This document shows, one piece after another, positions 6,021 to 18,360 of a stretch of DNA of 20,837 nucleotides. The translations under genes were made by a program, and so were the position numbers. Source of the stretch: a virus (Duplodnaviria > Heunggongvirae > Uroviricota > Caudoviricetes). Within the stretch, counting starts at the first letter, position 1; the number at the start of each line of letters is the position of its first letter. The stretch lies in IMG/VR virus record IMGVR_UViG_2537562191_000053; one strand, 5' to 3'. The notes under the pieces are model-generated. The model saw only the letters and a program-made list of their open reading frames with translations, searched no databases and was not told where the DNA came from.

Positions 6021-6266
6021 AAGTGCGGGTGCGTTGAGGATGCCTGACTCATCAGAGGTGGCGAGGGATTTCTCCCTCGCCTGGTCTCTTACTCCTCAGG
6101 TTCGTAAGCTGTGAAGACAGCGACCTCCGTCTGGCCGGTTCGGATTCGTACCTCGCAGAGGTCTTTCCTCGTTACCAGTGCCGTCACTATGACGGTTAAA
6201 CAGATGACGATCTGAACCGCCCCGGAAATCCTGGAGACTAAACTCCCTGAGAAAGAGGTAAACAGG

Positions 6267-6593
6267 ATGACTAAAAATACTCGTTTTTCCCCCGAAGTCC
6301 GTCAGCGGGCGATTCGTATGGTTCTGGAAAGTCAGGATGAATATGACTCACAGTGGGCGGCAATTTGTTCCATTGCCCCAAAGATTGGCTGTACGCCGGA
6401 GACTCTGCGTGTCTGGGTTCGCCAGCATGAGCGGGATACCGGGGGCGGTGATGGTGGGCTCACCAGCGCTGAACGTCAGCGTCTGAAAGAGCTGGAACGT
6501 GAAAATCGTGAACTGCGCCGCAGTAACGATATCCTTCGCCAGGCTTCCGCTTATTTTGCGAAGGCGGAGTTCGACCGCCTCTGGAAAAAATGA
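6267..6593 (+). CDS. IS629-like transposase OrfA (HTH)
   Basis: 108 aa, [23 protein letters not shown]...; A-rich slippery run (GGAAAAAAT) at its 3' end. Confidence 0.9.
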
Positions 6594-7480
6594 TGCCACT
6601 GCTGGATAAGCTGCGTGAGCAGTACGGGGTCGGACCGGTATGCAGCGAACTGCATATTGCCCCGTCAACGTATTACCATTGTCAGCAACAGCGACATCAT
6701 CCGGATAAACGCAGTGCCCGTGCGCAGCACGACGACTGGCTGAAGAGAGAGATACAGCGCGTATACGATGAAAATCATCAGGTGTACGGTGTGCGTAAAG
6801 TCTGGCGTCAGTTGTTACGGGAAGGAATCAGGGTGGCCAGATGTACAGTGGCACGTCTCATGGCGGTTATGGGACTTGCCGGTGTTCTCCGGGGTAAAAA
6901 GGTCCGTACGACCATCAGCCGGAAAGCCGTTGCCGCAGGCGACCGCGTAAACCGTCAGTTCGTGGCAGAACGACCTGACCAGCTGTGGGTGGCTGATTTT
7001 ACTTACGTCAGCACATGGCAGGGCTTCGTCTATGTGGCGTTTATCATTGATGTGTTTGCCGGATACATCGTGGGGTGGCGGGTCTCATCGTCTATGGAAA
7101 CGACATTCGTGCTGGATGCGCTGGAGCAGGCGTTGTGGGCCCGTCGTCCGTCTGGCACCATCCATCACAGCGATAAAGGCTCTCAGTATGTGTCACTGGC
7201 CTATACGGAGCGACTAAAAGAAGCCGGATTACTGGCATCAACAGGGAGTACAGGCGACTCGTATGACAACGCGATGGCTGAGAGCATCAATGGTCTTTAC
7301 AAAGCGGAGGTAATACACCGTAAGAGCTGGAAAAACCGTGCAGAAGTGGAACTGGCCACACTAACGTGGGTGGACTGGTATAACAATCGACGATTGCTGG
7401 GAAGGCTGGGCCATACTCCTCCGGCAGAAGCAGAAAAAGCTTATTATGCTTCCATCGGAAACGATGATCTGGCAGCCTGA
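6590..7480 (+). CDS. IS629-like transposase OrfB (DDE catalytic domain; expressed as OrfAB by -1 frameshift)
   Basis: 296 aa with the DDE-type integrase core (...WVADFTYV..., ...HSDKGSQY..., ...[15 protein letters not shown]...). Confidence 0.9.
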
Positions 7481-8114
7481 GTTCACAGATAAAACACTCT
7501 CCAGGAAACCCGGGGCGGTTCAATCAGGGCGATTAACATCGCCTTTTGCTGCTTCATAGCCTGCTTCTCCTTGCCTTTCGGCACGTAAGAGGCTAACCTA
7601 CATGTGCAAAGCATGAAATTGGCCTCAGATTAATGTTAAGCGTCTTGCCGGACGCGTAATGTTAACTGGGGCTTTTCTCTATCTGCCTTTTGGTGTTCAT
7701 GCCTGAGGCAGATAGCCTCAAGCACCCGCAGCAATTCTAACTATCCAATAGATCAATGCCAACTTCTTTTCCTGCAACATCTCTCATCAGAAGTGACCCA
7801 AATTCATCCAATCAGCACAAAAGAAACATTTAAAGCGTGAATGCTACCGAACGTTCATTTCAATTACATCGTTTTGATTTTTAACAGTTTTCACCTCAAC
7901 AAATCAAATGGCATTAGCATTCATCATGGAAGAAAGACTGATAAAAATGATCATTTTCAATGACTTATGATCACACCGGGTATTGCCAAGTCATTCCTTT
8001 TACGCCAGGATACCCACAAGTGAGTAGTCGAGGAGAGTTTGCCAATTTTTGCGATATAAATTTCAATGTCCGAAGAACCATTAATTGTTAATTGATTCTG
8101 TATAAGGTATTAAC

Positions 8115-9212
8115 ATGACAATTTCATATATTCCTATTCTGAAAGCGAAACGTTCTGAGTTATCAGCTTTATCGCAGCTATCCATTGAAAAGAAATCAAA
8201 AATTTTGCCATTACTCGAAATTGAACCAGTGCCAATTGACCCTGATTCAGGTATTGCCTTAAAGAGTTATAACGAGACTCTTATAGAGTTCGGAAAGAAA
8301 GTCTCAAAATCTTGCTCAGATATGCAAGGTGTTTATATTGATGGATTATTAATTGAAGAGCATTTTATTTCTCCTGAAGATCATTACCCTATAATAAATG
8401 CGGTTAATCAAGTTAGAGATATGGAGATAAGAGTTATTCCTGTCAGTTCACCAACTCGCCCATCTAACTATAAAAGAGCGATTGATGAATTAATGCAGAA
8501 TGAAATATGCTTGAGATTAACCACGTTAGATCTGGTTAACCCACAATTAATAACGCATTACATTAATCATCTGGGAATTCCTTTATCAAATATTGATATA
8601 ATTATTGACTTAAGAGATGAGTTAACCGAGGATAAAATTAATTCCGGCGAACTATATACTTTGGCAATGGGATTGATAAACAATCTGGCGCACCTCAATG
8701 AATACAGAAAAGTGATTCTTTCTGGGGGTTCATTTCCTACAGATCTCAGTGATATTTCTGTTGGTCTATATTCTCAACCTCGAATCGAGTGGATTTTATG
8801 GCAGAGTTTAATGAATAGAAAAGAACTTGCCAGAAATGTGATTTATAGTGATTATGGAGTACAGCACCCCGACTTTAATAGGCTTTCGACGCGATTCCCT
8901 AGCGTATCTGCCAGCGTCAGATACTCTGGAGATAATGACTTTTGGGTATTTCGAGGAAGAGTAGCTAATCGCTTTGGTTATGAACAATATGGTAAACATA
9001 GTGAGGATATTCTTGCTCATCGAGAATATTCAGGGCCTACATTCTGTGCGGGAGATAGAGACATAGAATATTATGCAAACGAGTATCAAGCCTACAAAGC
9101 CAATCCCTCTGGTAACTATAAATTTGGTAGCCCAGAGGTATGGCGTAGGATTGGGCAAAACCATCACATAACTAAGGTTGTTGAGCAACTCGCCACTCTT
9201 TACGGGCTTTAA
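8115..9212 (+). CDS. Hypothetical 365-aa protein in AT-rich island; candidate sensor/partner of a two-gene defence-like module (tentatively Beta-protein/sce7725-like, unverified)
   Basis: ATG with AAGGT RBS; codon-dense and strongly AT-rich; N-terminus MTISYIPILKAKRSELSALSQL. No Walker, HNH or methylase motifs seen. Family resemblance is from memory only. Confidence 0.75.
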   Translation: MTISYIPILKAKRSELSALSQLSIEKKSKILPLLEIEPVPIDPDSGIALKSYNETLIEFGKKVSKSCSDMQGVYIDGLLIEEHFISPEDHYPIINAVNQVRDMEIRVIPVSSPTRPSNYKRAIDELMQNEICLRLTTLDLVNPQLITHYINHLGIPLSNIDIIIDLRDELTEDKINSGELYTLAMGLINNLAHLNEYRKVILSGGSFPTDLSDISVGLYSQPRIEWILWQSLMNRKELARNVIYSDYGVQHPDFNRLSTRFPSVSASVRYSGDNDFWVFRGRVANRFGYEQYGKHSEDILAHREYSGPTFCAGDRDIEYYANEYQAYKANPSGNYKFGSPEVWRRIGQNHHITKVVEQLATLYGL

Positions 9213-17050: not shown

Positions 17051-17092
17051 TGAACCGCCCCGGGTTTCCTGGAGAGTGTTTTATCTGTGAAC

Positions 17093-17983
17093 TCAGGCTG
17101 CCAGATCATCGTTTCCGATGGAAGCATAATAAGCTTTTTCTGCTTCTGCCGGAGGAGTATGGCCCAGCCTTCCCAGCAATCGTCGATTGTTATACCAGTC
17201 CACCCACGTTAGTGTGGCCAGTTCCACTTCTGCACGGTTTTTCCAGCTCTTACGGTGTATTACCTCCGCTTTGTAAAGACCATTGATGCTCTCAGCCATC
17301 GCGTTGTCATACGAGTCGCCTGTACTCCCTGTTGATGCCAGTAATCCGGCTTCTTTTAGTCGCTCCGTATAGGCCAGTGACACATACTGAGAGCCTTTAT
17401 CGCTGTGATGGATGGTGCCAGACGGACGACGGGCCCACAACGCCTGCTCCAGCGCATCCAGCACGAATGTCGTTTCCATAGACGATGAGACCCGCCACCC
17501 CACGATGTATCCGGCAAACACATCAATGATAAACGCCACATAGACGAAGCCCTGCCATGTGCTGACGTAAGTAAAATCAGCCACCCACAGCTGGTCAGGT
17601 CGTTCTGCCACGAACTGACGGTTTACGCGGTCGCCTGCGGCAACGGCTTTCCGGCTGATGGTCGTACGGACCTTTTTACCCCGGAGAACACCGGCAAGTC
17701 CCATAACCGCCATGAGACGTGCCACTGTACATCTGGCCACCCTGATTCCTTCCCGTAACAACTGACGCCAGACTTTACGCACACCGTACACCTGATGATT
17801 TTCATCGTATACGCGCTGTATCTCTCTCTTCAGCCAGTCGTCGTGCTGCGCACGGGCACTGCGTTTATCCGGATGATGTCGCTGTTGCTGACAATGGTAA
17901 TACGTTGACGGGGCAATATGCAGTTCGCTGCATACCGGTCCGACCCCGTACTGCTCACGCAGCTTATCCAGCAGTGGCATCAT
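17093..17983 (-). CDS. IS629-like transposase OrfB (copy 2)
   Basis: Translation identical to copy 1 OrfB. Confidence 0.9.
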
Positions 17984-18306
17984 TTTTTCCAGAGGCGGTC
18001 GAACTCCGCCTTCGCAAAATAAGCGGAAGCCTGGCGAAGGATATCGTTACTGCGGCGCAGTTCACGATTTTCACGTTCCAGCTCTTTCAGACGCTGACGT
18101 TCAGCGCTGGTGAGCCCACCATCACCGCCCCCGGTATCCCGCTCATGCTGGCGAACCCAGACACGCAGAGTCTCCGGCGTACAGCCAATCTTTGGGGCAA
18201 TGGAACAAATTGCCGCCCACTGTGAGTCATATTCATCCTGACTTTCCAGAACCATACGAATCGCCCGCTGACGGACTTCGGGGGAAAAACGAGTATTTTT
18301 AGTCAT
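17980..18306 (-). CDS. IS629-like transposase OrfA (copy 2)
   Basis: Translation identical to copy 1 OrfA. Confidence 0.9.
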
Positions 18307-18360
18307 CCTGTTTACCTCTTTCTCAGGGAGTTTAGTCTCCAGGATTTCCGGGGCGGTTCA

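Follow-up and report, generated by a model that had tools for sequence, protein, structure and literature searches.

IS629-driven small structural polymorphism in EHEC has reportedly been described by Ooka et al. (2009), and Pedersen and Gerdes (1999) are said to have found chromosomal hok/sok loci of E. coli K-12 inactivated by IS elements. IS629 makes target site duplications (TSDs) of 3 to 4 bp, and 62% of its copies lie in prophages; IS1203 is the IS629 isoform from O111:H- (PMC3271280). In O111:H8 an IS-excision enhancer (IEE) is present, and IS-adjacent deletions are known (PMC9943667). Here, we examined a stretch of 20,837 nucleotides (the window), in which two IS copies in inverted orientation flank part of a prophage. 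The host of these elements is a lambdoid prophage adjoining potC in EHEC E. coli O111:H8, and a literature search found no paper on this prophage or its inducibility. The inverted pair is real but already known in kind, and it is ordinary, well-documented IS behavior in these pathogens.

Structure of the IS copies and the allele series

A repeat search of the window returned one inverted pair, with arms of 1,310 nt that were 100% complementary and had 9,528 nt between them (Table 1). By script comparison, copy 2 was the exact reverse complement of copy 1. These results agree with a first-pass annotation of the DNA, which had described two identical, full-length, IS629-like copies with intact OrfA and OrfB, inverted about 9.5 kb apart. 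In a domain search, both copies encoded an OrfA of 108 aa (HTH_Tnp_1) and an OrfB of 296 aa (rve, HTH_21, and rve_3). The two frames overlap at ATGA with an A6 slippery run, and the programmed frameshift is annotated by PGAP. The IS ends, TGAACCGCCCCGG... and ...CCGGGGCGGTTCA, begin with TG and finish with CA, and 22 of 25 terminal positions match between them. The elements thus have what marks the IS3 family: a length of ~1.2 to 1.5 kb, imperfect terminal inverted repeats, a -1 frameshift between orfA and orfB, and a TSD of 3 to 4 bp. They are assigned to IS1203, an IS629 isoform, because PGAP labels identical copies in RefSeq genomes "IS3-like element IS1203 family".

The copies in the window were without a single difference when their identity was checked as the first-pass annotation had proposed. 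In NZ_CP077574.1, the nearest complete genome, copy 2 and copy 1 differ by one base (window position 17856), and therefore the perfect identity applies to the window's assembly only. All 20 IS copies inspected were 0 to 1 nt from the window's copies, and the host genome held at least 40 matching pieces for a query whose second half was the IS end. Where all genomic IS copies are identical, identity between two of them is uninformative on relative age.

Table 1. Positions of the IS copies, their target duplications, and the interrupted genes in the window
Feature	Position	Strand	Remarks
hokD 3' part, codons 12-51 + stop	6089..6212	-	Severed from start and regulatory region; IS-free allele encodes 51-aa HokD
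ATC duplication of copy 1, left	6210..6212		Empty allele has a single ATC
IS1203/IS629 copy 1 (IS3 family)	6213..7522	+	In hokD; junction at 100% in 37 complete genomes
orfA, copy 1	6267..6593	+	HTH_Tnp_1
ALIL frameshift-stimulating pseudoknot, copy 1	6548..6664	+	Rfam RF01497, 121.5 bits
orfB, copy 1	6590..7480	+	rve, DDE integrase core; OrfAB fusion via -1 frameshift at A6 run
ATC duplication of copy 1, right	7523..7525		Flank inspection
Segment between copies, 9528 bp	7523..17050		Native prophage early region, order and orientation as in IS-free and one-IS versions; sok, beta/sce7726 pair, DUF977, O-like replication gene with iterons, ydaT, cro-like gene, candidate repressor, relBE, ydfC, DicF, dicB, 5' part of exo
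hokD 5' part, start codon to codon 11	7526..7557	-	Reconstructed from IS-free allele
sok antitoxin RNA / hok mRNA 5' regulatory region	7552..7727	-	Rfam RF01794, 119.8 bits, full model
Exonuclease gene (exo) 5' fragment, 470 codons	15641..17050	+	Stop made by first IS bases
ATC duplication of copy 2, left	17048..17050		Flank inspection
IS1203/IS629 copy 2	17051..18360	-	In exonuclease gene after nt 1410; junction at 100% in one complete genome only
orfB, copy 2	17093..17983	-	DNA same as copy 1
ALIL pseudoknot, copy 2	17909..18025	-	Rfam RF01497, 121.5 bits
orfA, copy 2	17980..18306	-	DNA same as copy 1
ATC duplication of copy 2, right	18361..18363		Flank inspection
exo 3' fragment	18364..19419	+	Rv2179c-like 3'-5' exonuclease domain (residues 642-811 of intact protein)

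Copy 1 lies between codons 11 and 12 of a toxin gene and so divides a hok/sok type I toxin-antitoxin locus. The IS-free allele encodes a 51-aa HokD (MKQQKAMLIALIVICL...), annotated hokD, with sok adjoining. In the window, the sok and hok mRNA 5' region is now 1.3 kb from the toxin body, where PGAP predicts a hybrid ORF of 46 aa whose start lies within the IS end. From its position, copy 1 would have cost the locus its HokD function. The hok::IS junction was found at 100% in 37 complete genomes, which are O111:H8, NM, or H- where a serotype is given. This location inside hokD had escaped the earlier annotation.

Copy 2 had been described as a simple insertion, and when we deleted it in silico together with one ATC, the exonuclease halves rejoined to an uninterrupted ORF of 821 aa, exactly as encoded in an IS-free strain. 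The exo::IS junction was present at 100% in one complete genome only.

Complete genomes hold a natural series of IS-free, copy-1-only, and two-copy alleles. The comparison with an IS-free version that had been suggested was provided by strain 99.1145, in which both hokD (51 aa) and the exonuclease (821 aa) are intact. Over 18.2 kb, the backbone of this strain and the IS-free reconstruction disagree at a single position, once the first 60 bases of the window, which are shifted in register, are set aside. Strains 8E and OkiPb01689 also have empty sites. The copy-1-only allele is found in reference strain 11128 and ten others (11 genomes), with the inner segment and its orientation unchanged. Other strains carry a second IS copy elsewhere in the same prophage, in ydaT, DUF977, the SASA esterase gene, int, or one of two hypothetical genes, and also in exo, at nt 813 and nt 1330. 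Both copies had been thought probably recent; this fits copy 2, which is private to one genome, but not copy 1, which is clade-wide.

Because copy 1 is in 37 genomes and copy 2 in one, the pair very probably represents two separate, sequential, simple insertions of IS1203, of different age, in the O111:H8 lambdoid prophage next to potC, without any composite transposon. Copy 1 would have entered hokD first and then descended through a large O111 clade. Much later, and only in the lineage leading to strain 7-54 11A, copy 2 would have entered exo, by chance in the orientation opposite to that of copy 1. Each insertion would have made its own 3-bp duplication, with ATC at both sites being coincidence. 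This order is drawn from the distribution among genomes and not from a dated phylogeny. Since the IEE occurs in O111:H8 (PMC9943667), the empty site could in principle represent precise excision instead of the ancestral state.

IS-driven erosion of the prophage

In sister strains, the prophage has been eroded repeatedly, both by recombination between IS copies and by deletions anchored at copy 1. In 15 genomes, the beta/sce7726 block was deleted by recombination between direct IS copies, leaving one IS with ATC (the hok site) on its left and CAC (the DUF977 site) on its right. RM9322 and 14614 carry the two-copy intermediate of this hok-DUF977 deletion, and the 15 deletion genomes may be descendants of a single event. 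In all, 17 of the 37 genomes have lost beta/sce7726 via such copy-1 deletions, so that the cargo genes, which the earlier view held to be preserved, are not generally so. Two strains with a different flank to the right of copy 1, E2863 and 9662, were considered as inversion candidates, and both proved to be deletions.

The first-pass annotation also held that the IS insertions probably make the prophage defective. The exonuclease gene is indeed divided, but a frameshift in the portal region, with a two-ORF arrangement, is present even in the IS-free version; thus, the IS copies are not the sole candidate defect. Judging by position, copy 1 would exert polarity on the rightward operon ahead of the Q-like gene, and copy 2 would do so on the leftward operon ahead of xis and int.

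Alternative readings of the inverted pair

Two identical IS copies bracketing 9.5 kb could be read as the ends of a composite transposon that arrived as one unit with its inner DNA. ATC stands at both outer ends (6210-6212 and 18361-18363), which taken alone would fit a single duplication of the whole unit. However, the inner flanks are ATC as well, and removal of each IS with one ATC yields an intact hokD and an intact exonuclease gene. Separate empty-site alleles exist for both copies, the 11 copy-1-only genomes have the inner segment in place, the IS-free version has the same gene order, and the bracketed DNA is native to the prophage as its early region. This reading is therefore already refuted by the empty-site and one-IS alleles; we give it practically no weight, in agreement with the earlier statement that the pair is not a transposed composite unit. 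It is also scarcely credible that the perfect identity of copy 2, or its presence, is an artifact of repeat collapse or consensus polishing during assembly. The base that separates the copies in the nearest complete genome but not in the window would fit such an artifact, and assemblies are indeed not identical, as at positions 7 to 60 the window has two substitutions and a compensating indel pair relative to three related genomes. Nevertheless, exo::IS junctions with a clean 3-bp duplication are also found in the independent NZ_CP077574.1, which aligns with the window in one piece, and an artifact could explain the last base of identity only, not the insertion. The matching duplications raise a further reading, a sequence-specific target preference of the transposase. 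Flank inspection confirmed the earlier observation that all four triplets are ATC, from which such a preference had been proposed. Both sites read ATCAG on the plus strand, a shared triplet has a chance probability of 0.017 for one pair, and three independent insertions, clustered in a stretch of ~103 bp inside the exonuclease gene or its counterpart in O157, hint at regional preference. Against this, nine further insertions, in this prophage or the homologous one of O157, are flanked by TSDs other than ATC (in the prophage family AGC, GGTG, GTT, CAC, CAG, CTGG, CTT, and one imperfect), and at least one shared triplet is expected among seven 3-bp sites with a probability of 0.31. The IS orientation is opposite at the two sites, giving ATC versus GAT in the IS frame, and an alignment of sites in that frame had no common motif. 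Published surveys likewise report no target pattern, with Rump et al. (2011) describing IS629 as having no sequence-based target (PMC3271280). We consider sequence preference quite improbable and coincidence the best explanation of the shared ATC; chance can make all four flanking triplets the same, which calls for caution.

Separate insertion of the two copies, the reading that we prefer, still leaves 1,310-bp inverted repeats that would be a substrate for RecA-dependent inversion. The first-pass annotation had suggested that recombination could invert the segment, and the idea is plausible because recombination between direct copies is documented at this locus. Recombination inside the IS keeps each junction between IS end and flank as it is, and the junction query is the same for both orientations; our census resolved what lies to the right of copy 1 in each of the 37 hok::IS genomes. 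None of the 37 had an inverted arrangement, including the three strains with inverted IS pairs in the prophage (7-54 11A, SD134209, and SF4-1), in which all TSDs were matched. The only complete genome with the exo::IS junction aligns collinearly with the window as a single block, and the segment between the copies keeps its native orientation. This absence is weak evidence, because only three strains have inverted pairs and finished assemblies give one consensus orientation. A stronger form of the idea is that RecA inverts the segment at appreciable frequency, so that PR reads to xis-int and PL to Q and the late genes. Such flipping could draw on perfect repeats 9.5 kb apart, on direct copies that have recombined at the locus, and on the well-documented inverted-repeat inversions in O157 prophages (PMC8743559). 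With zero of three inverted-pair strains inverted, no site-specific recombinase or other sign of a dedicated switch, and an effect that would matter only on induction of a prophage already looking degraded, we regard it as very improbable. We also think it unlikely that either exo nt 1330 to 1433 is a regional hot spot for IS629/IS1203 or the inverted pair flips measurably and swaps the early promoter outputs. A hot spot, if true, would mean a structural instead of a sequence-based target preference of IS629/IS1203. Second insertions were not significantly enriched in exo (3 of 9; P = 0.11, binomial test).

As a side observation, the proposed hot spot spans ~100 bp with three independent hits, in O111 and O157 prophages and in both orientations. 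O157-type insertions in CV261, Z1835, and Z1836 were examined as same-position exo insertions; base-level inspection placed their site 23 nt downstream, with the TSD GTT.

Comparison with known systems

The findings have little importance beyond bookkeeping, but they give a clean worked example of IS1203/IS629 eroding a prophage in an EHEC lineage, from a toxin gene interrupted clade-wide and private second insertions to deletion by IS-IS recombination and deletions anchored at an IS. As IS-printing does for O157, the insertion states could provide lineage markers for O111:H8 typing. The O111 prophage series compiled here is descriptive and covers 37 genomes, about ten insertion events, and four deletion endpoints.

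By their annotation and anatomy, the elements in the window are IS1203/IS629 (IS3 family, IS51 subgroup), as found in EHEC O111, O157, and O26, without substantive difference. They share its near-identical multiple copies per genome, its mostly prophage location, and its duplications of 3 to 4 bp. Like Tn10 and Tn5, the window has two inverted IS copies around cargo; unlike them, its cargo is the native early region, a one-IS intermediate exists, and there is no evidence that the unit ever moved. Switches of the Hin, Gin, and Fim type have short sites, a dedicated recombinase, and both orientations, whereas here the repeats are whole IS copies, no invertase gene is present in or beside the segment, and one orientation is found in 37 genomes. 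The IS-hit hok/sok loci of K-12 and the locus in the window are alike in that an insertion sequence disrupts a hok-family type I toxin locus. In K-12, however, IS150 and IS186 are reported to sit near the hok genes without entering their reading frames, whereas here IS1203 divides the hokD frame itself. The O111:H8 prophage shares with EHEC IS629 polymorphism and IEE-associated deletions (PMC9943667) strain-specific prophage insertions, gene inactivation, and IS-adjacent deletions, and in both one gene is struck repeatedly at different sites. Published work on IS629 polymorphism centers on O157, whereas the present series follows one O111 prophage.

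Anatomy and setting of the two IS1203 copies

The nearest complete genome to the window was the chromosome of Escherichia coli O111:H8 strain 7-54 11A (NZ_CP077574.1), which matched it in one piece across its full length. The two differ by one base in copy 2 (17856) and by two substitutions and a compensating indel pair at 7-60; the differences at 7-60 indicate that the window is a different assembly or isolate. This stretch lies inside the SASA esterase gene, and the two substitutions and +1/-1 indel pair also distinguish it from three related complete genomes. The host element, which adjoins potC, is a lambdoid prophage. 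Its minus strand carries a cro-like gene, ydaT, an O-like replication gene with iterons, DUF977, sce7726, hokD, DUF968, rusA, a Q-like DUF1133 gene, a methyltransferase gene, two tRNAs, and the SASA esterase gene, followed by lysis and head genes, and its plus strand carries a candidate repressor, relBE, ydfC, DicF, dicB, the exonuclease gene, xis, and int. Within the O-like HTH gene, five 15-bp units in tandem (TCAACnGTTGAnGGG-like) are most likely replication-origin iterons.

A repeat search returned one long inverted repeat in the window, whose 1,310-nt arms (the two IS copies) are 100% complementary and enclose an inner segment of 9,528 nt; by script, the reverse complement of copy 1 equals copy 2 base for base. 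Both are built like an IS3-family element, with termini TGAACCGCC.../...GGCGGTTCA matching at 22 of 25 terminal positions, orfA (108 aa, HTH_Tnp_1), orfB (296 aa, rve), an ATGA orfA/orfB overlap preceded by an A6 run, and an ALIL frameshift pseudoknot matched over its full length (RF01497, 121.5 bits). ATC stands directly outside all four ends. In NZ_CP077574.1, PGAP labels both elements "IS3-like element IS1203 family transposase," and IS1203 is an IS629 isoform originally from O111:H- (PMC3271280; PMC6602927). Repeat search, script, flanks, and ORFs thus bear out the first-pass annotation, which had described an identical, full-length, inverted IS629-like pair with ATC flanks and had placed it correctly. 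In NZ_CP077574.1, copy 2 is one base off copy 1 (IS position 806), which alters the transposase protein accession. All 20 IS copies inspected (13 genomes, O157-type included) differ from the window's copy by 0 to 1 nt; therefore, identity of the copies is uninformative on their age. A query with the IS end as its second half found at least 40 matching pieces in the host genome.

Features of the prophage and IS1203 insertions (window positions unless a retrieved comparison locus, L, is named; exo, exonuclease gene; TSD, target-site duplication)
Feature	Position	Strand	TSD	Basis or strains
AgvB (anti-GcvB) sRNA	1387-1446	+		Rfam, above gathering score
STnc100 sRNA	1448-1656	-		Rfam, above gathering score
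HokD toxin body	6089-6212
46-aa hybrid ORF	6089-6229	-		PGAP, "Hok/Gef family protein"
IS copy 1, in hokD	6213-7522	+	ATC
sok RNA	7552-7727			RF01794, full-length model, 119.8 bits
Beta_protein family gene	8115-9212	+		PF14350; PADLOC PD-Lambda-2_C, 1.4e-40
sce7726 family gene	9172-9750	-		PADLOC "cll," 2.4e-28
15-bp units	11612-11701
DicF sRNA	14946-14997	+		Rfam, above gathering score
exo insertion sites (nt 813, 1330, 1410; O157 homologue)	16450-17075, 18361-18390
IS copy 2, in exo	17051-18360	-	ATC
Copy 2 in NZ_CP077574.1	L001:31051-32360
3.1-kb deletion evidence	6213-10620 equivalent; L011:1731-3040, L005:9213-14932
Portal-region gene, outside window	L001:1876-4622	-
Portal-region gene, outside window	L018:7283-9946	+
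IS in exo	nt 813	+	AGC	8E
IS in exo	nt 1330	+	GGTG	2013C-4361
IS in ydaT	L004:15342-16651	-	imperfect	SD134209
IS in DUF977		+	CAC	RM9322, 14614, OkiPb01689
IS in SASA esterase gene		+	CAG	RM9322
IS in hypothetical gene		+	CTGG	2009C-3675
IS in another hypothetical gene		+		TW05614
IS in int		-	CTT	SF4-1
IS beside DUF977, with 411-bp deletion		+	none	RM9131
IS in O157-type exo homologue	23 nt downstream of window's site	-	GTT	CV261, Z1835, Z1836

Two separate insertions and their consequences

Copy 1, which had been placed "upstream of the nin genes," lies more exactly inside hokD, between codons 11 and 12. Because the IS splits this gene, annotated hokD and encoding 51 aa in the IS-free allele, it stands between the toxin body and both the start codon and the sok region directly right of the IS. 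PGAP calls a hybrid ORF here; its first six codons lie within the left IS end and its start is a non-canonical ATT, and it is probably not expressed. Thirty-seven complete genomes, including reference strain 11128, have the hok::IS junction as a single match at 100% identity (O111:H8/NM/H- where a serotype is given); the empty site, also at 100% identity, is found in O111:H8 (99.1145 and 8E), in O26:H11, and in other genomes. Copy 2 sits after nt 1410 of a gene for an 821-aa exonuclease, upstream of the part encoding the Rv2179c-like 3'-5' exonuclease domain (residues 642 to 811). Its junction was matched at 100% identity in 1 of 5,426 complete genomes. In line with the simple insertion stated in the first-pass annotation, removing copy 2 and one ATC restored a stop-free ORF whose protein is identical to that of IS-free strain 99.1145.

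The matching outermost flanks could suggest a composite transposon. Near-identical backbones exist, however, in three states: without any IS (99.1145), with copy 1 alone (11128 plus ten others), and with both (7-54 11A). Leaving out the register-shifted first 60 bases, the reconstructed IS-free sequence and 99.1145 differ once in 18.2 kb. These states exclude a composite unit, as had been argued earlier, and identify the pair as two simple insertions made separately: an old, clade-wide copy 1 and a private copy 2. The proposed recent origin of both thus holds for copy 2 (one genome) and fails for copy 1 (37 genomes).

Since copy 1 separates the replication genes from the Q-like gene, and copy 2 separates xis/int from the leftward early genes, polar effects of both are plausible from position. 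PGAP calls the portal region a frameshifted pseudogene in the IS-bearing and the IS-free strain alike, so this frameshift, if a real defect, is older than the insertions. The region holds ORFs of 459 and 473 aa that overlap in different frames, with internal repeats on a 160-bp scale; this arrangement may be either a real defect or the head module's normal layout.

Deletions at copy 1 and the proposed inversion

A convergent, overlapping pair of beta and sce7726 genes between hok/sok and the replication module looks, from its domain matches, like a candidate defence pair; other PD-Lambda-2 components are absent from it. The cargo genes had been expected to be preserved, but the IS copies do not have that effect on this pair, which is gone from 17 of the 37 copy-1 genomes. 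Eleven of the 37 hold the full inner segment and one IS, nine have a second IS, 15 carry a 3.1-kb deletion, and two carry larger ones. The 15 have a single IS with the hok-site ATC on its left and the DUF977-site CAC on its right, exact to the base, and RM9322 and 14614 are the intermediate with both direct copies. This textbook deletion by IS-IS recombination removed the sok region, the beta/sce7726 pair, and two small genes; the 15 genomes may derive from a single event. Other deletions extend from the right end of copy 1: SF4-1 lacks 236 bp, 9662 lacks ~4.3 kb reaching into the O-like gene, and E2863 lacks ~6.6 kb covering the whole rightward early module. IS-adjacent deletions and an IS-excision enhancer are known for IS629, and the enhancer is found in O111:H8 (PMC9943667).

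The suggestion that the inverted copies could invert the inner segment remains sound in view of the documented recombination between direct copies at this locus, but none of the 37 genomes, as consensus assemblies, was inverted. The three strains with inverted IS pairs (7-54 11A, SD134209, and SF4-1) were all collinear with matched duplications; with three strains and consensus assemblies to go on, this negative result carries little weight. In the window, the inner segment is in its native orientation, because both copies are flanked by a matched duplication of their own and the genes run in the order of the IS-free version.

Target sites and relation to known elements

A preference for ATC had also been suggested. 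Two random sites in the prophage would share a triplet with p = 0.017, but among seven 3-bp sites the chance of one or more shared triplets is 31%. Furthermore, the second copy in sister strains lies elsewhere in this prophage and its duplications differ, the two ATC sites hold the IS in opposite orientations, and the sites aligned in the IS frame have no common motif. IS629 makes 3- to 4-bp duplications with no sequence-based target (Rump et al., PMC3271280), and we abandon the preference. The imperfect SD134209 duplication (...TTCC-IS-CCCGG..., native ...TTCCGG...) is either a 2-bp duplication with an extra C or a homopolymer error.

The exonuclease gene has received at least four independent IS1203 insertions (nt 813, 1330, and 1410 and the O157 homologue), an enrichment that is not significant over the gene as a whole (p = 0.11). 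Three of them, in both orientations and in O111 and O157-type prophages, fall within ~103 bp, possibly a regional hot spot; noticed post hoc, this is the single lead worth noting.

The IS inside hok resembles the IS-disrupted hok loci of K-12 reportedly described by Pedersen and Gerdes in 1999. Taken together, the finding is real, and neither the element nor the phenomenon is new: the window's IS1203/IS629 is like IS629 of EHEC, abundant in near-identical copies, concentrated in prophages, gene-inactivating, and deletion-seeding (PMC3271280, PMC9943667).
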